A DNA stretch of 44,691 nt from a virus (Duplodnaviria > Caudoviricetes), in IMG/VR virus record IMGVR_UViG_3300030493_000026, positions 1-44,691 of that record. The stretch is one strand, 5' to 3'. Positions within the stretch are counted from its first letter, which is position 1. Every line of letters starts with the position of its first letter. Positions 1,898-33,404 of this stretch are shown here, piece after piece. Position numbers and translations under genes: made by a program. The notes beneath the pieces were generated by a model. It was not told the DNA's origin. It made no database searches and saw nothing but the letters and a program-made list of their open reading frames with translations.

Positions 1898-3255
1898 GAT
1901 ACCCTCCTGATTACGATTCCATATTTATTGGTCGTGGCTTCTGAAATGGTTGTGTTTATGATTGTCGTTCCACCTGAATACAAACCACCAACAGCCCCTG
2001 CGAGACTTGATCCTGAAGCCACAATGTCATAAGTACCACCGCTTGGAGTTATCACCGTGAATGCATGGTTGTCTCCATCGGTATTCGTGTGCGATATGGA
2101 AACCATGCGCGTTTCGTTCACGTCCATTGCGGAAATGGTCGAGCTTCCATTTGTGGATTGGGAAAGTGTAAGTGCTTCACGTGAGTTTTTGTACAGCTTT
2201 AATGCCCCGTTTCCAGTATCCACTGTGACAAAGGTAACAGCGCTAGTGGTTTTCAACTCTTGGTCGGTCTTTGCAGCGATAGCGTCCGCAACGGTTTTTT
2301 TAGTTGCGATATCTGCATCGACACTTGGCTCCGCAACCTGCGCCCGTCCACTTGGGTCACGCACAATCAATCTGTCAGCGGTAGCCGCCGATACCGCGCC
2401 ATGGGGATTCACCACCGCGTTGTGTGCGGTAACTGTGCTTTTCAACGCCACATCGCCCTCGGCACTTGGTGCGGTGAATTTCGCGCGGCCTGAAGCATCG
2501 CGCGTGACCACCCTGTTTGCGGTCGCCGCATCGGTTCCTCCGAGTTGCAGGAAGTCCTGCACCGCCACTATGATAGCCGTGGTTGCTCCTGAAGGAATCA
2601 GCCCGATTGCCTTTTGGAACGCCTGTAAGTCTGCGGTAGCAAGAGCCTCCTTGATGAATGTGGCGATAGCTGAGGCCGTACCTGTCGGCAATAGTTCCAG
2701 ATGGAGTTGTGCGGTCAACTCGTTTGTAACAGCAAGCATGTTGGTCATATAGGTGGTGATAGGAAGGAATGGTGTCGCACTTGGTATTGCATCACCGTTT
2801 TCATCGAATCCAAGAGCCTTGTTCGCTCTGTCGGCTTTGTTTGGTAGCACCAAGCTTGCCGCATCGTCCGTGATGGGGATGGTTACGGTTCTGGCGATGC
2901 TCTCCGCGATCTGCTGAACATATCCTACTATGCGGTCGAACAGCGTTTCCAACACCTCAGCGTCCAGCATGGAGCCATTGGAGAAGTCCACATCGTTAAG
3001 GAATGCCGCTACCCGGGCAATGGTTATGCGTGTCGCATCAGCCGTCCATGTGCCGATTCTCGTCAGCGTTCCGGTCGTGCTGGGAATGGACAGCGAGTAG
3101 TCGGTATCCAACACAAGCACTTCTTCGGAACCGTCAGCGAAAGAAAGTGTCGCCACAATATCGGCGTAGGAAAAGTACGGGAACGGTATAACATACGATG
3201 CCGCCGGGGTGGTGGTTATGTCGTACTGCTTTACATTGGAGATGTCTGTGATCAC
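1894..3255 (-). CDS. Tail fibre protein with T7 gp17-like N-terminal anchor, allele A
   Basis: N-terminal IPFPYF...TDYSL...ITIAR...DFSNGSMLDAEVLETLFDRIVGYVQQI anchor pattern; two internal RD.SGRA...PS...D.A.K repeats; beta-rich C-terminal tip. Confidence 0.88.
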   Translation of the reverse strand: MITDISNVKQYDITTTPAASYVIPFPYFSYADIVATLSFADGSEEVLVLDTDYSLSIPSTTGTLTRIGTWTADATRITIARVAAFLNDVDFSNGSMLDAEVLETLFDRIVGYVQQIAESIARTVTIPITDDAASLVLPNKADRANKALGFDENGDAIPSATPFLPITTYMTNMLAVTNELTAQLHLELLPTGTASAIATFIKEALATADLQAFQKAIGLIPSGATTAIIVAVQDFLQLGGTDAATANRVVTRDASGRAKFTAPSAEGDVALKSTVTAHNAVVNPHGAVSAATADRLIVRDPSGRAQVAEPSVDADIATKKTVADAIAAKTDQELKTTSAVTFVTVDTGNGALKLYKNSREALTLSQSTNGSSTISAMDVNETRMVSISHTNTDGDNHAFTVITPSGGTYDIVASGSSLAGAVGGLYSGGTTIINTTISEATTNKYGIVIRRVS

Positions 3256-6200
3256 TCTATCCTCCCAAGTAGGGCCTCTGCCCCTTCATCGAACGCGCGG
3301 AATATCTGTTTGGTTCCCGAAACGGGAAGCCCTGTCGCATAGCCAAATCCTTCCGAAAGGTTCTTCACCGCCGATGTCCAGTTCGCCTGTGTCAAGTCTA
3401 TCACACCTTTCATCAGTTCGGTAGTGGCAGGATAAAAAGATGATGGATATACGTATGGCTTATCACCTGTGATAAGGCTTTCCGCAACATTATTGGTCAA
3501 TGAGCCGATAAGCGGAACCGAGTCGGTGAACTGGGTGAAGCTATAGTACAGCATTTTTTTTATCTTGTCCGCGTCCTCATCGTCATCATCGAATCCCTGC
3601 GCTACCGCACCAAGTATCGCGCCTGCCATGACATACCCAACCACCTGCCCGATAAGCTTTGCGTACTGCTTTTGCTTGGCGAACAGATTCATGTCAAATG
3701 TGGTGTTCTGCCAGATGATGTTCAGTGCGGCTTGGAACTGCGTAAGGATCTTCATGCCTTCACCACCACTTTTGAATAGCGGTGCTAGTTCTTCCGCACG
3801 TCCTGAAGGCTGTGTTCTGAGTACCGCATCGTCAGCGGCCTTTACGGAAGCTTTCACCGCCTCGACTGTAGCAGTGTCGTACTTCTTGAGGTTCTTACGG
3901 AACACTGCCAGCCAACCACCTGCGACAGCCCATTTATCGGCAAGCACCAAGCCTGTCATGCCAAGCTCCTGGAATTTCCTGAACGCCTGCATTTTCGCTC
4001 CGCTGTACTTCGCCTGCTCGTCCTTAAGCAATTGCACAATCGGGTCCATCGTCCGTTCTTTCATAACAATCGAAAGCTCGTTCACATGGTTTATGACTTC
4101 CATCGGATGGGTGGTGATATCAAAATACGCTTTTGCAAGCTCGATAGGATTTACTTCTGATAAAAATGGCATAGGGGACGTAATCAGCTGTAGAATGATA
4201 TTCGATGTTTTCCATGTAAGATACGCGGCCCCCAAGTTTCCGCGCAAGGTTTTGATAAGCTTGCCGTTGCGATCAAGACGCTTGAATGAGTTTGGGTTTA
4301 CATATTCGTTGATAGCATCGTCTATATCGTCAAGCAACGCATTCCCGAAAGTACCTACGATGGTGGAGCGCATTGAAGCCGAGTTCGGGCCTTTGAACAC
4401 GCGGTTCATCTCGCGTCCGAGTTCCGCGTAGGCTATGAAATGCTCCTGCATCTCCACCGCTTCCTGCCATGTGCCAAGCAAATCCAGCTTCATCGGTTTT
4501 TGGTGGCGTGGAGCTATGTTCACGCGCTCCTTGGTTATGCCACGCTCTATTCCGGTAGGCATTGCTCCCGCGTTCATGTTCAGGATATCGTCAGCGACAG
4601 CGGCGGCCAAATCATCGCCTGTCATCTCCATGCGTCTGATAGGCACATAGTTGTCGACACGGCTCACTGGCATGTTAAATTCTCGGATGGACACGGTGTT
4701 CAGCCTGTCGAAGTTGCTTGAGAAGTCATTGTCTATCGCGTCCATAACCAAGCGCATCTCTTTGCTTAATTCACGCTCTGCGACCTCTAGAACTTCCGCT
4801 AGGCGATTATCTCCTGTTTCCCGTATCTCTCCATCGGTGAGCGTTTCTTTTTCAATTGGCGACACAAGGTTCCCGTATGCAAGAGCAGCACGTGATTGGT
4901 CGTTTTTCGCTCCCATATAGAACATGGCAAGGTCGCTTCTGGTGTATGTACTATCACCGACTTGCACTTGCTTGTATGCATCGTCAAATTCGATGCCACT
5001 GTTTTTCATGGACTGCATGACCGCCTCGTATCTGCGGTTCACGTTGGTTTTCTCCATGCGGTATGCGTCACGCGGTCGGTCAACGAGCAAGTCATACGCC
5101 ATGCCTTTTTTCATATTGTCCAGCATCTGCGCCTTGCGTTCGATGTTCCATGTGGCGTACAGCATGGAACGGGATTTCTCCAATAGTCCACGCTTGCGCT
5201 TTACGTCCTCCACGGTTCCGGTCGGTGGGGGCTGGATAAACTTTCCAGTTGCTCTGAGAGTGGACTCAATACTGGAACGCATGGAATTAGCCAATTCACT
5301 CTGAAACACGCTACGAGCCTGCTGAATCAATCTTCCGGTCTTTCTGAGTGTAGCGACACGGGAAGCGATTTCCTCTAGCTCTGCGACTGTTATTTCGTTT
5401 AGCGAACGCTTGGAAAGTCTATCGGCGATCCGTGCTGGCAATGTCTGCGAAATGTCATAGTCACCTACAGTTTCCACAATAGCCTTGATATCATCCAACT
5501 GTACCAGCTTGTCGCCGTACTTCACTTTCCCTGTCCTGAACTTCGGGTCAAGAGTCGCTTGAATAGCCAAAATGGGAAGCTTGTACTTGTAGTCCACAGC
5601 TTGTGACACAGGTGACATTATCTTGGATGCAAGCTTGGTCTTGTACTCACGTACCTTCCGTGCATCGTACAACGCCTTCTGCTTTTCCTTCAGCGTGTCG
5701 GTGGCTTTATTGACCGCCTCGCGCTTCTTTTCTGCCGAGATGGTGCGATTAGACTTGGATAGCTGGTTAAACTCAGCCATGAGCGTTTTTACCTGCTCTG
5801 AGAGCGATTTGCGCTCGTCTATGAGGGTCTTGGATACTTCCTGATTCTTAGCGATTCGCTTCTGGATATTCTTCTGCGCCTTGGTCAACGCCTTACGTGC
5901 ATCGTCTATCTGCTCCTGTAGGTCGATGCCTCGGCGGTCTGATTCGGACAAAGATATACGCGCTTCCTTGTACTCGGCTTGGAGTTTGGCTATCTCTTCC
6001 TTGGTCTGTTTTATCTCGGTGTCCATCTGGCGCACAATCTTCTCAGCGTCACCATCGAACAGTTCCTCACCCGACAACAGCTTTTCCTTCAAAGCTTTCG
6101 CCTCTATGCGCTCTGAGAGCCGGATGCGGTCTGCGATGGAGATACGCTCAACAGCCTCAAACTCAGGTTCGGTGATGGATGGCAGGAACTCGTCAAGCAC

Positions 6201-9200
6201 GATAGGCTTCATCTCAGGATTTGACATGACATCGGCGTACAGGTCACGGTAAAGCCTTGAGGCGTTGGCGATGGTGGTGCGTATCTTTTTCAACTCGGTC
6301 GGTTTCAGAGTTTTGGAGATTGAGCCGATGGCGTTGGATACGATGGTCGGGGAAGCCTTCTGGATGCGGAACTTCAAATCAGCCATGCGCTCGTTGTAGT
6401 CGGCCATATCCTGATCGTCAGGAGCCTCCACGCGCTCGGTCAGGATTCGCCCCATTTCCTTGAGGAATGGCAACAGCCCATCGGAGTTCATGCTCTGCAC
6501 AAAACGGTCGTCCATCAGCTCATCATTGCCCTGTGGGTTTGCTTGCTCCCATGTATTGCGATACCAATCATCGTCCATGTCGGGAACTTCGCCGTACATC
6601 GCCTCTAGGAATGAGCTGTATCCGTCTTTGAAGTCCTCCCATGTGGAGAATTGGGAAGCTTCGGTGATGATGTCGTCTTGGAAAAGGATGCTATTCTCGA
6701 TGGTTATTTTGTTCTCATCGAACACTACGTAGTTGTATCCCTTTGAACCATCACCTGTTCCGTGAGATACTGCTGGATAACGATTACCATCAATTCCGGC
6801 ATTCATTAAAAATATTGAGGCTTTTTTTCCGCTTTGGTCATTAGTAATATCTGCAAGGTCTGCATAAAGCATTGCACCATTGGATTTGTTAAGTATGCTG
6901 TCCACAAGTTCTGATATATCGCTAACTCCATATGTTTCGTACTCACTTTTTGGATAAGTAAGCGTTTTCATAGGTTCTCTAAGCTTATTCTTAACCTCTT
7001 CTGATAACGGCTTATTCCAATCCATGAATAAATCTTCGCGATCTTTATTAATGGACACGTTGTAGAGATTCCTGTTGGAATATATTTCTATTCCATTCCT
7101 GTCAAAATATTCTTTCATCTGCGGTGTTAATAATTCAAGACCAGAAAGATAACCTCTCAACGCGGTTTCCACTTCATCAACAGCTTCATATTTTGCGTAG
7201 TTAGCTATTTCTTCATCAAGATACTTTATAAATTCTTTTGTATTTGATTTGCTGGATAAATCGCTGTCAAAATCAGACCGTGCTTCATCTTCGCTTTCAG
7301 CTCTTGCAAGGTACTCATCTTTACTTAATTTAAGTATGCCCCACAAATCATGGTTATCGTTTTCCCATACGTTGCTGAAAAGGCTTTCCCATGCTGAATC
7401 GTAATAGCGTTCTTTAGCTAAATCAATAGCCATATCATTAATTAGTGTTTGACGCTGTTCATCAGATAATTCTGTTCCGTCCTTTCTAAGAGTTGGTCTA
7501 GCGTATTCTGTGGCATACCATCGCGCAACTTCCTCTAGATCGGTAAAATATAAACCCCACCCATAAGCCTGCTGTCCTTCGCCTGTTCCAATATGTTCGG
7601 TGGAGAATCTATCGAACGTGTAAGGGCTTCCGTGATACGCGTCTGTTTGGAATATGGTGGCGCTTGTCGTCAACTCCTGCTGTTGCGCCTGCCGTGCCTC
7701 TTGCGCCAATGGGCTGTCGCTGTCGATAAGGGAATCAAAAACTTCGCGGATTCTGCTGTCGAGCTGTACGCGCCCTGTCAGCCCTCGGTAGATTTTCCCA
7801 AACCATTGCGCGAACTTCTCAAAAAACGCCTCTAGCTTGGAAGTCGGTGCTTTGCCTTCCTTGAGGTACAGCTCCCATAACTGCGCGGATAGTTCTTCCT
7901 GCGCTCGCGTCCATTCCTTACCAAAGGACGCTACAATCGCCGTAGCCTGCTTTGGTGAGAGTTTCAACAGCTTTTGGTTCTGCTGTACGTACTGCGCGAA
8001 CTCCTTGCTCTTGGAGGCTTCTGTGAGGGCTGAGGCCAATTTATCGGACTGTGACATCTCGCGCCGGAACAGGTGGAACGCCTCGTGGGTAAATGTGGAG
8101 AAGTCTGCGTTTTTGCCTGCGTAGATGAGGGCTTTTACACCTTGCTCTGTCTGCTTAAATTCGATACCACCACGCTTGCCTTTGATGGTTCCCCCAAACA
8201 CCTCGTTACCGAATTGAGCGTCCATGTACTGCTCAAGTGTCTGCCCCTTGGCGTTTGCCCTCATATCCAACAGCAATGAGGCGGCGATGCGCTGGGGAGC
8301 GTCCAGTTTCGGCATGGCCTTGGCTATCTGCGATTCGAGCTTCATACGTGCGTCCACGCTTTCCACACGACCAGCTTGGAACGGATTCAGTGAGCCTTGC
8401 TCGGTGATGATCGCTTCCTTCACCGCCATGAGGTTATCTGTTTCCGGATTCCAGGTAATCTCCACCCCGGGGTTCTGCCGTGCCAATTCCAGCACCGCGT
8501 CTTTTGCGGAAGTCTGGTAATCCGTGCCGAACCGCACTTCGTCTATGTCTATTGTGTTGTCTTTGAATGTGTAGGTGATGTTTCCGTATCTGTCGCCTGT
8601 GAGTGGATCTCCGATAAGCAAGGAACGCGCCTCGCTTCCGTCTGGTAAAATGTCGACCTCGGTTGATTCCCTTGCGTACAGCCTACCCGATGATAGCTTG
8701 CGGATATCGCCTGTGGCCTCGGAAGTGATGTCGATTTCCTTGACTGCCTGTTCCTCTGCTGGACGGTTTTCTTTCCAAAGCTGCGAGATGGTTTCCTTCC
8801 ATTCCTCTTGGTTCATTCCTTCCGGCATGGCCTCGCTGTACTTCTCGGAAAACGCCTCCTTGCTCTCCATGGTCTGCGCGTCTGATTTAATGGCTCCCAT
8901 GGTACGTGCATCGCTGATAGTGTGCATAGCGGTTCCAGCACCACCAAGGATAAGACCTGCAAGAAAGCCTCCCTTCGCTGAAAGCATCGCTTCCTTGACT
9001 ACTGACATGGTTCTTTCAGGTGCTTGCACATCGGCTAGCTCGGCGGCGGCGATATCAGCTACCCAACTGGAAATGCTCTGCGCGGCTTCTTCGGCTCCTT
9101 CCTCAAGTGCTTGTCCAGTGAGGTTGGCAACGAATGCACCAGCCGCACCCCACTTTCCGCTGATCGCAAGCTTTGCCAATACTTTTGAAGTAAGCGTGTT

Positions 9201-10025
9201 GGTCGATAGTCCGAACTTGGAAGCGACCGTACCTAAGGATATCTCGATTCCAGCCTGTACCCAAGATGAGATATTAGACACCGCGAGTGCTTTGTCCACG
9301 GGAACGCCATTCTTGCGCAGACGGTAGTATTCACCACCCTCCATGGTCTTGAACGCTTCCTCGAATGAGAACGCTGTACCTGCGGCTGTGGCAACCGCTA
9401 TGATGGAAGTGGCGATTGATACAGGCAATGCCCCTGCTGTTGCGACTCCTGCAAGCGCGGCGACTCCTGCGGCTCCGAGTCCTGCCAGCATTCCCTTGGA
9501 TGCTCCCTTAAGCGCGATATTCAAGGTGTATGGCAATGACTCCGCACCGAACTTGATAGCCTGTGTCACAAGGCTTCGCGGCGTGCTGTCACCGAGTTGC
9601 GCCATGGTCTGCTCGTACTGCTGGATTTGCGCCTCTATCGCGCTCGTGTCCTGTCCTGCAAGCTCGGCGTACTTGAACTGCCGTTGCGCCTCGGCTATGA
9701 CAGGTTGAAGCTTTCCAATCTCGATGGAGTCAACTATTGACTTCCATGTGGTCTTGGTGGGGGTGAACACCTTTCCTGTCTGCCACTGGGTAAGCTCGTC
9801 AAGCCTCACCATGGCGTTTTCCATGCTCAAGCCGTATTCCTTGCTGAAACGCAACGCGGAAGCGTACCTATAGGGTTCTTCCTCTGGATTCGATTGGATG
9901 GCATTGGATATCGGCCCGTACTCGGATTCTGTGACTGGCATGGAATAATCCCATGCTACGTTCATATTCGGGGCTGCTAGCTTCTGTGGCTCGGCTGGGT
10001 TCAGTGTCGCGCTTGGCAAGGTCAA
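3252..10025 (-). CDS. Large internal virion/DNA-ejection polyvalent protein (2257 aa) with an ART-like inserted domain
   Basis: Lies after the tail tubes and smaller core proteins. Gly/Ala hydrophobic N-terminal part, STFTHEAFH metallopeptidase-like motif, YHGSP..FDRF...GLYFTD...NYVVFD domain. Confidence 0.8.
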   Translation of the reverse strand: MTLPSATLNPAEPQKLAAPNMNVAWDYSMPVTESEYGPISNAIQSNPEEEPYRYASALRFSKEYGLSMENAMVRLDELTQWQTGKVFTPTKTTWKSIVDSIEIGKLQPVIAEAQRQFKYAELAGQDTSAIEAQIQQYEQTMAQLGDSTPRSLVTQAIKFGAESLPYTLNIALKGASKGMLAGLGAAGVAALAGVATAGALPVSIATSIIAVATAAGTAFSFEEAFKTMEGGEYYRLRKNGVPVDKALAVSNISSWVQAGIEISLGTVASKFGLSTNTLTSKVLAKLAISGKWGAAGAFVANLTGQALEEGAEEAAQSISSWVADIAAAELADVQAPERTMSVVKEAMLSAKGGFLAGLILGGAGTAMHTISDARTMGAIKSDAQTMESKEAFSEKYSEAMPEGMNQEEWKETISQLWKENRPAEEQAVKEIDITSEATGDIRKLSSGRLYARESTEVDILPDGSEARSLLIGDPLTGDRYGNITYTFKDNTIDIDEVRFGTDYQTSAKDAVLELARQNPGVEITWNPETDNLMAVKEAIITEQGSLNPFQAGRVESVDARMKLESQIAKAMPKLDAPQRIAASLLLDMRANAKGQTLEQYMDAQFGNEVFGGTIKGKRGGIEFKQTEQGVKALIYAGKNADFSTFTHEAFHLFRREMSQSDKLASALTEASKSKEFAQYVQQNQKLLKLSPKQATAIVASFGKEWTRAQEELSAQLWELYLKEGKAPTSKLEAFFEKFAQWFGKIYRGLTGRVQLDSRIREVFDSLIDSDSPLAQEARQAQQQELTTSATIFQTDAYHGSPYTFDRFSTEHIGTGEGQQAYGWGLYFTDLEEVARWYATEYARPTLRKDGTELSDEQRQTLINDMAIDLAKERYYDSAWESLFSNVWENDNHDLWGILKLSKDEYLARAESEDEARSDFDSDLSSKSNTKEFIKYLDEEIANYAKYEAVDEVETALRGYLSGLELLTPQMKEYFDRNGIEIYSNRNLYNVSINKDREDLFMDWNKPLSEEVKNKLREPMKTLTYPKSEYETYGVSDISELVDSILNKSNGAMLYADLADITNDQSGKKASIFLMNAGIDGNRYPAVSHGTGDGSKGYNYVVFDENKITIENSILFQDDIITEASQFSTWEDFKDGYSSFLEAMYGEVPDMDDDWYRNTWEQANPQGNDELMDDRFVQSMNSDGLLPFLKEMGRILTERVEAPDDQDMADYNERMADLKFRIQKASPTIVSNAIGSISKTLKPTELKKIRTTIANASRLYRDLYADVMSNPEMKPIVLDEFLPSITEPEFEAVERISIADRIRLSERIEAKALKEKLLSGEELFDGDAEKIVRQMDTEIKQTKEEIAKLQAEYKEARISLSESDRRGIDLQEQIDDARKALTKAQKNIQKRIAKNQEVSKTLIDERKSLSEQVKTLMAEFNQLSKSNRTISAEKKREAVNKATDTLKEKQKALYDARKVREYKTKLASKIMSPVSQAVDYKYKLPILAIQATLDPKFRTGKVKYGDKLVQLDDIKAIVETVGDYDISQTLPARIADRLSKRSLNEITVAELEEIASRVATLRKTGRLIQQARSVFQSELANSMRSSIESTLRATGKFIQPPPTGTVEDVKRKRGLLEKSRSMLYATWNIERKAQMLDNMKKGMAYDLLVDRPRDAYRMEKTNVNRRYEAVMQSMKNSGIEFDDAYKQVQVGDSTYTRSDLAMFYMGAKNDQSRAALAYGNLVSPIEKETLTDGEIRETGDNRLAEVLEVAERELSKEMRLVMDAIDNDFSSNFDRLNTVSIREFNMPVSRVDNYVPIRRMEMTGDDLAAAVADDILNMNAGAMPTGIERGITKERVNIAPRHQKPMKLDLLGTWQEAVEMQEHFIAYAELGREMNRVFKGPNSASMRSTIVGTFGNALLDDIDDAINEYVNPNSFKRLDRNGKLIKTLRGNLGAAYLTWKTSNIILQLITSPMPFLSEVNPIELAKAYFDITTHPMEVINHVNELSIVMKERTMDPIVQLLKDEQAKYSGAKMQAFRKFQELGMTGLVLADKWAVAGGWLAVFRKNLKKYDTATVEAVKASVKAADDAVLRTQPSGRAEELAPLFKSGGEGMKILTQFQAALNIIWQNTTFDMNLFAKQKQYAKLIGQVVGYVMAGAILGAVAQGFDDDDEDADKIKKMLYYSFTQFTDSVPLIGSLTNNVAESLITGDKPYVYPSSFYPATTELMKGVIDLTQANWTSAVKNLSEGFGYATGLPVSGTKQIFRAFDEGAEALLGRIE

Positions 10026-25377: not shown

Positions 25378-26013
25378 TCAAGCATTAAATAATTCCAATT
25401 GCGTGACCGATGGATAGGATTCATCGAGTAGTCCCCACTGAGTTGCCATTGCTTTTGCGATTCCTGGGAATGTCTTTGCTCTATTGCGCTGCCTATCCTT
25501 GCCTCCTTTAGAAAACCATGTGTGTGCATCGTGACAGCTTTGTATCGGCTCGACAATTTCTGTTGGGGAAAGTGGTGGCAAACCTTTTAACCAAAGCCTT
25601 GTTCTTTTCCGTACTGGATGCCCGAACTGCCACGGCTGTATCTCTTGTGTGCATTCTGGCATTCCAAATATCGCGCTTGGCATTGGATTCTCTATCGCAA
25701 TCCGTTTGCATTTGCAATTATAAAATTGCATAAAAAACGCTTTTCCCTCCAAACCTTTCTGATAACGGTCATTGTTCAATCTATGGCCCTTCCATAAATG
25801 TGATGCTCCAGCATTGCTTAGATACGTACACGGAGGAAACGCTATAATCATGTCCCAATCTTGCTCCAACAATGGTGTAACATCTTGCTGTAGATGCCAC
25901 TCAGGGTGTCCGCCGCTACAAGGGATGATGTCGCACGAGTACGCCTCGATGCCGAGATTGCGCAGTTCGATGGTTACGGCTTGCGATTCCTCACAGGCGA
26001 CTAAGACTTTCAT
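25378..26013 (-). CDS. Phage short-type DNA cytosine-C5 methyltransferase
   Basis: KVLVACEES, AYSCD, IAFPPCTYLS (catalytic PC), IAIENP, QPWQFGH and R.KTFPGIA.AMA.QW. Confidence 0.88.
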   Translation of the reverse strand: MKVLVACEESQAVTIELRNLGIEAYSCDIIPCSGGHPEWHLQQDVTPLLEQDWDMIIAFPPCTYLSNAGASHLWKGHRLNNDRYQKGLEGKAFFMQFYNCKCKRIAIENPMPSAIFGMPECTQEIQPWQFGHPVRKRTRLWLKGLPPLSPTEIVEPIQSCHDAHTWFSKGGKDRQRNRAKTFPGIAKAMATQWGLLDESYPSVTQLELFNA

Positions 26014-30124: not shown

Positions 30125-30149
30125 GTCATTCCTCCCTTGTTTCGCTGAC

Positions 30150-30201
30150 AGCCTCGTCAGTACCAGCTTCACTGGTAGACCGCCCGAAGGCGGTTTCGGC
30201 T
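30150..30201 (-). ncRNA. Type II hammerhead ribozyme
   Basis: AGCC-GAAA-CCGCC(TTCG)GGCG-GTC-TACCAG(TGAAG)CTGGTA-CTGACGA-GGCT: all core nucleotides and three stems present. Confidence 0.92.
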
Positions 30202-30548: not shown

Positions 30549-30578
30549 TTGACAACTGGAGGGGATGTGGGGTATATT
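30549..30578 (+). promoter_or_regulatory. Rightward sigma70-like promoter (divergent pair)
   Basis: TTGACA-18 bp-TATATT. Confidence 0.65.
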
Positions 30579-30590
30579 TGGGCTACGGAC

Positions 30591-30706
30591 TAATCAACCG
30601 TGAAGCACAATAACTGCAAGCATGAGCCTTAGTGTAGGTGGATTGACGTTGTTATTGGGCGTCAAGTATCGGCTGATTACCGAACACCTGCATTAAGGCT
30701 TTCTTT
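30591..30706 (+). ncRNA. C4/CI-like structured RNA with upstream complementary sites
   Basis: 16-bp basal stem (30625-40/30685-700), two arms with 7-nt loops and a U tail; both loops are complementary to upstream CAATAAC and TAATCA. Confidence 0.65.
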
Positions 30707-31048
30707 ATGTCCAGGTATTCGGAGCTTTGGATTTTGGCAGAATGGGTTTTGGGTCTGGGGCTGTCCGAGCCTCTACAGGGTGACTACGGAAGAGGCAACG
30801 ATGGGAGCGCAAAGGGCAAGGCGTTAGTAGCGGATGATACAGTCCGTCAACTGCCCAAAGTGATCGGTGGTATCGCACTCGGTCACCGCAACTGGCATAC
30901 GGCATGGCTCCGTAGAGCATAGGTTGTGAGTTGCTCAACCTCGTTTACTCGGGGTTGGGGAGCTTACGCACGAGCACCAACATCCACCATAGAGCATCTA
31001 GTTGTTAGTTAAGATTGAATAGGGTTGATAAATAGTTAAAAGAAAGTG

Positions 31049-31076
31049 TTGACAATATAGTATAATATGGTATGAT
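31049..31076 (+). promoter_or_regulatory. Sigma70-like promoter for the modification cassette
   Basis: TTGACA-16 bp-TATGAT in an AT-rich context. Confidence 0.65.
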
Positions 31077-31092
31077 GTATTTGAGATTAGTT

Positions 31093-31197
31093 AGGTAACA
31101 TCGACACTTACCCGACTGGTTATCAAAAACTAGTTAGCCTTGCATTGTCTTACCGTGTCGAACCTGAAAAGGTGGTAAGGTGGTGCAGGGCTTTTTT
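31093..31197 (+). ncRNA. C4/CI-like attenuator RNA in the methyltransferase leader
   Basis: 19-bp stem with G-U pairs (31136-54/31174-92), GTGTCGA bulge, ACCT-GAAA-AGGT hairpin and T run; upstream AGGT..TCGACAC is complementary. Confidence 0.65.
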
Positions 31198-31209
31198 ATG
31201 GAGGAATGT

Positions 31210-32607
31210 ATGGCTATTACAAAAAAGGACGATTTATTCCAGGACGTTATCGAAATCAAGTGCATCGAAAAGGTTGTTGATTCTGAGTATTCTATTAAGA
31301 TAGCTGATTTGGCTATCCGTGACAAAGTTGCATACCGTGCCGCAAGAAAGAATATGCAGATACACTCAGCAGTGGTGCTTGAGGTTAACAGCGAGTTCGC
31401 TGGATTCTTCACATTCCAAATTAACCATGAGGTTGGTGAGTTTTGCTTGCTACAATCTGCAATGGAGGAAGATAAGAAAGACGTTGACTTATACAAGATG
31501 ATGCTTGAGAAGATTATTGAGCAGAACACTTTTGGGTATCCAATGATCATGACGGTTTCAACAAAGCATGACCTTGAGAAACCAAGCGTTCTGGCTTCAG
31601 TTGGTTTCAAGACCTATCTTGAATTAAGCGGATACCATTACATGGTGCATGGAGAAATGTCGCAAGTAAGGTTTAAAAGGCTTGCACACGCAACCATGAC
31701 CAACTGTTGGAACTCTTACAAGGGTGACTGGATGAAAATGAAAAAGGAATGGAATGAACAGATTGAAGCCGCTGGGGTAAAGTTCGATATTCCAGACCCG
31801 AAAGCCGCTACTCGTAGCGGTTGCTGGCAGGGAACCAATGGATTGTCAAACGTAGTGCTTGGCTATCAGACTGTAGAAGATGGAGAGATAGTTGACCACC
31901 GTGAGAAGTCATTGAATGCGAATGCTTCAGTTCTTGACCCTGTTGCGTGTGAAGTTATTCTTAGGTTCTTTATGCCAAAAGACGGTAAAAGAGTGTACAA
32001 CCCGTTTGGCGGTGGTGTTCAGTTCGGTTTTATCACAGGCAGTTATGGCTATGAGTATGTTGCAAGCGAAATTAGGCAAAACCAGTGTGATGCAAACAAT
32101 ATGCTTTGCTCTGATTTTGGATGTGCCAAATGGATAAAAAGTGATTCTTCATCGTATGTGCCCGCTGGTAATTTCGACCTGTGCTTTACCTGTCCACCGT
32201 ACTACAAGGTAGAGAAATATCTTGACTATGATGGGAAGCCACCAGCCAATGAACTCAATTCACTCAGCACGTATGAGGAATTTAGAGCCATGCTTTTTGA
32301 GGGATACAAGAAAGCTATTTCAGTTCTGAACGATGATTGTTTCTTTGTGGTTATGATTGGGGATTCTCGTGACAGCAAGGGTGCGTACTATGGCTGTGAG
32401 GCAGAGCATGAGTTATTTTTCAAGTCACAAGGCTTACACATCTATAACAAAATAACCTATCTTGAATCAGAGTTTACCAGAAGGGCACACGCAAAAGTTA
32501 CCCTGAATACCAGGAAGTTCCCGAAATCTGAACAGAAAATATTGGTGTTCTACAAGGGTGACATTTCTAATATCGGTGACAGATTCAGCAAGGTCGGCAG
32601 GCTGTGA
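31210..32607 (+). CDS. GNAT-like domain fused to an N6-A/N4-C-type DNA methyltransferase
   Basis: C-terminal SVLDPVACE, VYNPFGGG (motif I) and FTCPPYY (motif IV variant). The N-terminal ~150 aa has a GNAT-like strand/helix order ending VLASVGFK. GGAGG RBS before 31210. Confidence 0.8.
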   Translation: MAITKKDDLFQDVIEIKCIEKVVDSEYSIKIADLAIRDKVAYRAARKNMQIHSAVVLEVNSEFAGFFTFQINHEVGEFCLLQSAMEEDKKDVDLYKMMLEKIIEQNTFGYPMIMTVSTKHDLEKPSVLASVGFKTYLELSGYHYMVHGEMSQVRFKRLAHATMTNCWNSYKGDWMKMKKEWNEQIEAAGVKFDIPDPKAATRSGCWQGTNGLSNVVLGYQTVEDGEIVDHREKSLNANASVLDPVACEVILRFFMPKDGKRVYNPFGGGVQFGFITGSYGYEYVASEIRQNQCDANNMLCSDFGCAKWIKSDSSSYVPAGNFDLCFTCPPYYKVEKYLDYDGKPPANELNSLSTYEEFRAMLFEGYKKAISVLNDDCFFVVMIGDSRDSKGAYYGCEAEHELFFKSQGLHIYNKITYLESEFTRRAHAKVTLNTRKFPKSEQKILVFYKGDISNIGDRFSKVGRL

Positions 32608-33404
32608 AAACATTTCTTGAAAAGATAACCTTGAGTAAAAATAGTCGGGGATGCTACATCCTCGACACTGTTAAAGGGTGCTTGGTGTGTGGGAAAGACA
32701 AGCCGCTTGGATGCTATGGGAATTGCTACGCATTGCAGATAGCGAAAAGGTACAAGCTCGATTTTACCCACACTGTAAAAAGAGGTTTTAGCCGTGAGTG
32801 TGACCAGCTATACTTGTTCGATGCTAGCGATCAGGAGCATATAGGTGACATAGTACATCAAATCCGAAATATCGATATGCCTTTTATCAGGATAGGTGAA
32901 ATGGGCGACCCGTCATACAATTGGGAGCATACCATCAATGTATGTGAGATTCTTTCGATTGCCGATAAGCCTATAGTTATCATCACTAAACATTGGGAGG
33001 TATTAACAGACAACTTGCTTGAGAAAATGCAAAAACTCAATATATGTGTCAACACTTCAATCTCAGCCCTAGATAGCAAGCAAGAGATAGCACACCGACT
33101 GAACCAATACCACAGGCTTAAAAAGTTTTGCAAATCCGTGCTGCGTGTCGTCACCTGCGATTTCAACACAAGCATTAAAGATGGAATTGAAAAGAACGAA
33201 CTACAAAATGAACTGTTGGTAAATTCCAAAGTGATCGATACCGTTTTTAGACCTGATAAGAAAAATATGTACATAGAATCAGGATTGATACGTGCTGAAT
33301 CTGTCAAATTTCTGGGGAGTAAATGCCTTGTAAGTATGCACGACAAAAGTACATTCATAGGGTACTGCAATGATTGCCCCGATATGTGTGGCATAAACTT
33401 ATAA
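32604..33404 (+). CDS. Radical SAM protein (spore photoproduct lyase/DUF5131-like)
   Basis: LDTVKGC...GCYGNCYA, IRIGEMGDP, IITK, NTSISALD and C-terminal CNDCPDMC; GTGA overlap with the MTase stop. Confidence 0.72.
   Translation: MKTFLEKITLSKNSRGCYILDTVKGCLVCGKDKPLGCYGNCYALQIAKRYKLDFTHTVKRGFSRECDQLYLFDASDQEHIGDIVHQIRNIDMPFIRIGEMGDPSYNWEHTINVCEILSIADKPIVIITKHWEVLTDNLLEKMQKLNICVNTSISALDSKQEIAHRLNQYHRLKKFCKSVLRVVTCDFNTSIKDGIEKNELQNELLVNSKVIDTVFRPDKKNMYIESGLIRAESVKFLGSKCLVSMHDKSTFIGYCNDCPDMCGINL

Follow-up and report, generated by a model that had tools for sequence, protein, structure and literature searches.

We describe a two-gene cassette at positions 31049 to 33404 of the IMG/VR virus record IMGVR_UViG_3300030493_000026 (Duplodnaviria; Caudoviricetes), analyzed here over its full length of 44,691 nucleotides (the window). 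The window resembles a whole tailed-phage genome, carrying genes for a GP7-type capsid, a head-tail connector and a terminase along with very long virion genes on the minus strand. Both cassette genes are encoded on the plus strand, as are all cassette features described below, in a region of small early genes where several strong sites of sigma70 type occur. Gene 1 (31210..32607) likely starts at the ATG at 31210, preceded by GGAGG at 31200-31204, and its open reading frame (ORF), predicted model and fold matches indicate a 465-aa product joining a GNAT-fold domain to an amino-methyltransferase-fold domain. Gene 2 (32604..33404) codes for a 266-aa protein with a predicted radical S-adenosylmethionine (radical-SAM) fold like that of spore photoproduct lyase (SPL). 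An earlier interpretation of the nucleotide sequence made without database searches (the sequence-only reading) proposed that these genes are translationally coupled and together could build a hypermodified DNA base; the overlap is confirmed, the two genes sharing GTGA at 32604-32607.

The AlphaFold model of the gene 1 product is confident (pLDDT 88.5). Its N-terminal domain (31246..31653; residues 13-148) has the strand and helix order of the GNAT alpha/beta fold, and the predicted model matches Ard1 (4r3k; Z 14.8, rmsd 2.4, 130 aligned residues) and RimI (Z 14.6), so that the GNAT-like assignment of the sequence-only reading stands. That reading also failed to see the acetyl-coenzyme A (CoA) loop, which is indeed lacking family-wide: R/QxxGxG/A is present in 0 of 199 family GNATs (a set with some overlap between protein and locus entries), and charged residues with the consensus RKDKE occupy its position. 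The domain is highly conserved and has many invariant polar residues; D38, R46, N48, Q50 and Q82 are among its invariant positions. A second, tandem GNAT-methyltransferase paralog, cut by the contig end, is found at L025:5254-5871; it aligns along the entire GNAT domain (hhalign 99.4%), has an intact CoA loop (WKGNG at the aligned place) and gives a weak Pfam GNAT match (E 0.002, below cut-off). A search for further paralogs with an intact loop returned L025 alone, and searches of Pfam, PHROGs, NCBIfam and PADLOC with 12 N-terminal domains returned no GNAT family at cut-off. As for the Mom-type GNATs invoked earlier, no Mom match is among those listed for the gene 1 sequence and fold searches, for which the GNAT domain was modelled within the full protein, and Mom, Elp3 and M6 gp53 are not among the fold matches listed, which does not exclude them.

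The second domain of gene 1 (31684..32565; residues 159-452) has a predicted class I SAM-dependent Rossmann fold with the motif I and PPY-type motif IV of N6-adenine/N4-cytosine amino-methyltransferases. The predicted model matches aTrm11 (5e72; Z 18.1, rmsd 2.6, 180 aligned residues) and TrmN (Z 16.9), and the sequence matches phrog_498 (E 1e-37). Motif I, NPFGGGVQ (31999..32022), is of a glycine type with no aspartate, and motif IV is CPPY (C328; 32191..32202); the [DNS] expected at its first position is replaced by Cys in 196 of 200 relatives, the remaining four not being parsed. By full-domain homology and the shared CPPY, gene 1 is a member of the ParB-linked CPPY phage methyltransferase clade, in which the GNAT-fused family forms a single branch (support 1.0). 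The 27 cultured-phage records related to gene 1 are all distant methyltransferase domains and none is full length. CPPY occurs in 12 of the 13 cultured-phage relatives that were opened (found by tblastn); these are used in place of the 172 of 173 clade loci with the motif, a circular count as both clade scans required CPPY. The unusual motif noticed in the sequence-only reading is therefore present but not peculiar to the cassette, and judging from these sequences it marks the wider ParB-linked clade. A plasmid search gave one distant methyltransferase match, and PDB sequence searches with the gene 1 and gene 2 alignments gave repeat artefacts or weak matches only.

The model of gene 2 (pLDDT 94.6) has a partial TIM barrel, and its best structural match is SPL (4fhc; Z 11.6, rmsd 4.0, 219 aligned residues, 11% identity, for the predicted model). 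The top 22 VIA rows (Z of at least 8) are all radical-SAM-type enzymes, and the top Foldseek matches are to EpeE (E 3e-4). Gene 2 does not match PF04055 and lacks the canonical CxxxCxxC spacing; it finds nothing at cut-off in Pfam, PHROGs, NCBIfam or PADLOC (NF033668 at E 9e-4 is far below cut-off), and none of 16 distant relatives has a radical-SAM Pfam match. The predicted [4Fe-4S]/SAM site is a cluster of non-canonical spacing, C26-x10-C37-x3-C41 (32679..32726), and a second metal site is predicted at C255-x2-C258-x3-C262 (33366..33389). All six cysteines are unchanged throughout the alignment (147 of 147 relatives), and the spacing of the first triad is x9-11/x3 in 120 of the 147 (27 not parsed). 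Together with G25-C26...C41-YA, GDP (101-103) and ITK (127-129), every gene 2 motif listed in the sequence-only reading, the terminal CxxCxxxC included, is present. One distant relative of gene 2, the 701-aa P0343, also contains an ATP-dependent DNA ligase domain.

Gene 2 also contains QLYLF (32805..32819), a candidate sliding-clamp-binding peptide, QxxLF being what we take to be the consensus for such peptides. QxxLF is found at a fixed place in 68 of 120 gene 2 relatives and 40 of 120 gene 1 relatives, with a single match in 48,934 other gene 1 residues. A similar clamp-type peptide, QLELF, ends the short C5-methylase-like gene (phrog_757) at 25378-26013 on the minus strand.

The pairing of gene 1 with a radical-SAM gene is near-obligate. 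We kept 80 gene 1 loci of 115 viral relatives (one being the same phage) and 80 gene 2 loci of 239, the two sets sharing contigs. A radical-SAM partner is present in 77 of the 80 gene 1 loci, the other three being at contig edges; conversely, 79 of the 80 gene 2 loci have a methyltransferase and 77 a GNAT as well, the three exceptions starting near a contig end. The co-occurrence on which the earlier proposal depended is thus borne out. Gene 2 itself accounts for 66 gene 1 loci, with overlapping stop and start in 56 (one pair, in L012, truncated), an upstream position in one, and nine fusions in the order radical-SAM, GNAT, methyltransferase. At the same place in 11 of the 80 is a different radical-SAM family (type B, gene 2 being type A) with canonical CxxxCxxC (one is split and one cut by a contig end), and five of six tested pass the PF04055 cut-off. 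On the tree, which has many weak nodes, fused partners and those of types A and B are intermingled; an hhalign comparison of type A with one type B protein (12.6%) gave no significant link, the motifs being alike by eye. No other neighbour is common to more than 17 of the 80 gene 1 loci when alternate-frame ORFs are set aside, and a C5-methylase-like ORF cluster occurs in 17. Among 80 type B loci the gene is found with gene 1 in 11, ParB in 42, an ABC-ATPase-GNAT in 12, a formyltransferase in 10 and a Vut_1 transporter in eight; from this gene content type B appears the more promiscuous partner, sitting also with other predicted modification genes. Gene 1 and gene 2 make up a conserved, mobile unit of phages, with fusions and partner exchange. 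Two type B loci have further neighbours: at L004:4218-5916 two TET-associated glycosyltransferase genes lie directly upstream of a gene 1 homolog with a type B partner, and at L366:3054-6617 the neighbours of the type B gene include a Vut_1 transporter and an ORF resembling a transglycosylase (by eye; no Pfam match), suggesting a deazaguanine locus.

The chemistry of the CPPY domain was considered through its relatives, in 173 clade loci made up of the 13 cultured-phage relatives and 160 others (the best 80 of 600 and the best 80 of 270). An AdoMet decarboxylase gene lies beside 101 of 125 loci in which motif I has an Asp after FxG, versus 0 of 43 without the Asp (five not parsed), or 23 of 25 versus 0 of 23 when merged at 65% identity. 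The decarboxylase gene is no more than 200 nt downstream in 87 of 104 cases, and at least 1 kb of downstream sequence was available in 38 of the 43 non-Asp loci. On the tree, the main Gly branch is not alone in lacking a decarboxylase: two nested Gly tips (L240 and L241) and a group of 12 Asp tips do so too. Cultured phages P2559S and ZRG1 have relatives beside an AdoMet decarboxylase. A fold-II pyridoxal phosphate (PLP) enzyme is adjacent in Vincenzo and Mae-JY30 and inserted in Pam4 and ZS04, all four being Gly-type; in the latter two (L081:3012-5501 and L165:1093-3531) the PLP domain lies between motifs I and IV. Seven Asp-type loci have an MprF-like acyl-transferase nearby, and at least 11 lie by SAM synthetase. 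The ParB-CPPY loci of Asp type whose neighbours are SAM synthetase or are MprF-like or PP-loop-like include L186, L197, L206, L212, L264, L267 and others, mostly Bacteroidales prophages where named.

The motif I Asp presumably corresponds to the specificity Asp by which spermidine synthase selects decarboxylated SAM. The available text of PMC6164962 says of that residue only that Asp104 is essential. This gene context suggests that the clade transfers the aminoalkyl arm of SAM instead of the plain methyl group assumed in the sequence-only reading. On the simplest reading, Asp-type enzymes would transfer aminopropyl from decarboxylated SAM, and Gly-type enzymes, including the window's family, amino-carboxypropyl from SAM itself. 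Partners of the PLP and MprF-like kinds would require an adduct of amine or amino-acid type, which N-methylation would not provide. Aminoalkyl transfer would explain the repeated recruitment of enzymes that handle amines and amino acids. A 2013 abstract by Iyer et al. reportedly mentions bases made from modified SAM derivatives, and may already predict the decarboxylase link. We tentatively propose that the CPPY "methylases" are DNA aminoalkyl transferases (Asp-type aminopropyl, Gly-type amino-carboxypropyl) around which interchangeable PLP, GNAT and radical-SAM enzymes build undescribed bases, the cassette being the GNAT and radical-SAM branch; we hold this general form to be somewhat doubtful.

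That the cassette carries out some form of DNA hypermodification is probable. The specific proposal, that its three predicted domains alter, step by step, a base of freshly replicated phage DNA through the amino-carboxypropyl arm of SAM, is one to which we give slightly under an even chance. The CPPY domain would first alkylate a base nitrogen (probably N6 of adenine or N4 of cytosine) with the 3-amino-3-carboxypropyl group of SAM, releasing methylthioadenosine. The GNAT domain would then acylate the new primary amine, using a donor that is not acyl-CoA (an aminoacyl-tRNA, for example), or might merely bind the adduct, and the SPL-like enzyme would rearrange or cleave the adduct by radical chemistry on DNA; these last two steps could occur in either order. 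Through the QxxLF peptides the enzymes would be held at the host clamp, and the purpose would likely be partial protection from host nucleases. The multi-step idea of the sequence-only reading survives in its three folds and their near-obligate pairing, and is altered in its plain-methyl first step and its link to Mom.

Several observations weigh against the amino-carboxypropyl proposal. True RNA methyltransferases (Trm11 and TrmN, Z 17-18) head the list of fold matches for the CPPY domain, and the aminopropyltransferase BpsA (5xnc) comes only at rank 50, its Z of 13.7 being level with that of generic methyltransferases. In the window, gene 1 itself has DDLF and not QxxLF. The decarboxylase link concerns Asp-type relatives of ~30% identity while the window's family is Gly-type; the association of Asp with decarboxylase reflects few independent events, in scans that selected on CPPY and were ranked towards the Asp-type query P2559S, and decarboxylated SAM could instead be a private methyl donor. 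No decarboxylase, PLP enzyme or SAM synthetase is found in the window or with its gene 1 family (PLP by blastp, of low sensitivity). A PLP partner went undetected in 39 of the 43 non-Asp loci, and most Gly-type loci are without a detected tailoring gene. Finally, GATC occurs 152 times against 479 expected and GCWGC 14 times against 101, and the genome strongly avoids GATC, CCGG, GGCC, GCWGC, GGWCC, CGACG and CCWGG. Blanket protection is therefore disfavoured, and whatever protection there is would be no more than partial, or else recent; the anti-restriction role put forward earlier stays conjectural. Palindrome avoidance across loci was set aside as confounded by host.

Of the alternatives, the one that survives best begins with methylation: the CPPY domain would make N6-methyladenine (m6A) or N4-methylcytosine (m4C), whose N-methyl group the radical-SAM enzyme would activate, and the GNAT would either donate or take up an acyl unit, giving a hypermodified base. 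This alternative comes near to the proposal of the sequence-only reading. It accords with the best fold and sequence matches, which are to amino-methyltransferases, and with the near-obligate pairing; the decarboxylase, PLP and MprF-like partners of the clade are left unexplained by it and the CoA loop is absent, and we regard it as unlikely, though deserving of attention.

Distinctly less credible is the reading of gene 1 as a plain DNA methylase that acts against restriction and has a GNAT without catalytic function, gene 2 serving separately in repair or nucleotide metabolism and being only co-regulated. The absence of the GxG loop from all 199 GNATs, the many Gly-type relatives that stand alone, and the presence of gene 1 in only 11 of 80 type B loci agree with this, but not the nine one-chain fusions, the 11 replacements by a second radical-SAM family or the many invariant polar residues of the GNAT. 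To the same low degree we entertain RNA (tRNA) or protein as the target, to which the fold matches point (tRNA m2G methyltransferases and protein N-acetyltransferases being the best); the sequence kin are ParB- and terminase-linked genes of DNA-methylase type, SPL, the nearest match of gene 2, acts on DNA, and clamp-type peptides are enriched, all of which argue for DNA. An Elp3-like transfer, in which radical-SAM and GNAT domains move a carboxymethyl radical from acetyl-CoA to the base and the methyltransferase caps it, recalls the radical-SAM to KAT/GNAT order of Elp3 in the nine fusions, but is highly improbable given the charged RKDKE in place of the CoA loop and a PPY motif, which indicates a base-amine and not a carboxyl acceptor.

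The region upstream of gene 1 contains a sigma70-type promoter with extended TG (31049..31076; TTGACA-16-TATGAT, 11 of 12 consensus matches), its elements being TTGACA at 31049 and TATGAT at 31076. A scan of 3.4 kb returned 10 sites where chance predicts 7.6 +/- 2.3, with equally good sites at 30549 and 33534. The promoter is followed by a structured leader (31083..31197), in which a 5' hairpin precedes a terminator-like hairpin (31136-31192) leading into U6 (31192-31197); the fold has z = -2.65 and is equalled by three of 200 shuffles. An alternative fold is 11 kcal/mol weaker than the main one, and attenuation by competing folds is possible on this folding model. A conserved riboswitch was rejected because the leader matches no Rfam family and has no homolog among loci L001-L158 except in an identical contig. 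The sequence-only reading was right that a promoter and a structured leader are present; both are local, and in 38 of 71 assessable loci a same-strand ORF ends no more than 60 nt before gene 1 (ORF starts being crude). It was likewise right that gene 1 (42.5% GC) and gene 2 (40.2%) are AT-richer than the virion genes (50-54%), but the neighbouring early genes are as low (36-43%). Composition therefore cannot delimit the cassette, and a horizontal-transfer boundary drawn from GC was rejected. Promoter, leader and low GC are real yet local, and not conserved traits of the cassette.

Elsewhere in the window, a type II hammerhead ribozyme scores at Rfam gathering level (30143-30201, minus strand; 37.1 bits, E 1.3e-5) and overlaps the start of the ORF at 30172-29810. 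Between divergent promoters, 30580-31040 is a stretch of ~460 nt with short ORFs only and ~51% GC; Rfam gave no credible match for it, and the fetched loci contained no homolog. The 2257-aa virion-type protein encoded at 3252-10025 (minus strand) has a weak ART-PolyVal match (E 3e-4, below cut-off).

Relatives clustered at 90% number 2,386 for gene 1 and 1,149 for gene 2, and the CPPY clade is estimated at ~2,600 stored viral stretches; the cultured phages in the collection searched include no full-length gene 1 and no gene 2. The cassette is a real, widespread and unstudied unit, and probably a variant of the phage DNA hypermodification clusters. Should the aminoalkyl reading be true, it would reveal a new entry route to DNA hypermodification that requires no altered nucleotide pool and a natural enzyme that places an amine handle on DNA, and the CPPY clade would be re-annotated. 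Cultured phages P2559S, ZRG1, Vincenzo and Pam4 carry simpler members of the clade, making the idea directly testable.

Among known systems, spermidine synthase, BpsA and the RNA amino-carboxypropyl transferases have SAM-binding folds that move the aminoalkyl arm of SAM or decarboxylated SAM, with polyamines or RNA as substrates. We know of no aminopropyl or amino-carboxypropyl transferase that acts on DNA. For gene 1 the nearest such systems are the phage ParB-methylase fusions of ParB-terminase loci (phrog_498; Listeria B054 gp77, Croceibacter P2559S gp66 and Mycobacterium Vincenzo gp1), which have the same unpermuted CPPY domain (25-35% identity over residues ~170-465), whereas the cassette has a GNAT in place of ParB, a radical-SAM partner and an early-gene site far from the terminase. 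ParB-terminase methyltransferases are predicted to be modifiers of phage DNA (PMC4738411), and a nicking ParB-methylase, Bce_0392, is mentioned in PMC5512222; we found no experimental reports on the CPPY clade. Nor did we find a published description of the GNAT, methyltransferase and radical-SAM trio, which does not appear in the available text of PMC8989533, PMC13219725, PMC7824862, PMC8256090, PMC5512222 or PMC4738411. Gene 2 departs from SPL (4fhc) in the non-canonical spacing of its cysteines, in a further Cys triad at its C terminus and in its coupling to a transferase. Mom of phage Mu, a GNAT that uses Gly-tRNA on double-stranded DNA (PMC13219725), shares its fold with the gene 1 domain and is a precedent for a non-CoA donor; it acts alone and has a helix-turn-helix-like insertion. 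In Pseudomonas phage M6 and in PaMx11, as would be the case here, an amino-acid adduct carried by the phage's DNA is processed by enzymes of the radical-SAM and GNAT types: M6 gp53 is an SPL-like glycinyl-thymine isomerase and PaMx11 gp48 a GNAT that acetylates 5-aminomethyl-deoxyuridine (PMC8989533). The Cys spacing of gp53 is CxxxCxxC and that of gene 2 is Cx10Cx3C. Those pathways begin at 5-hydroxymethyl-deoxyuridine with a kinase and an amino acid:DNA transferase, while in the cassette the amino-methyltransferase fold likely acts first.

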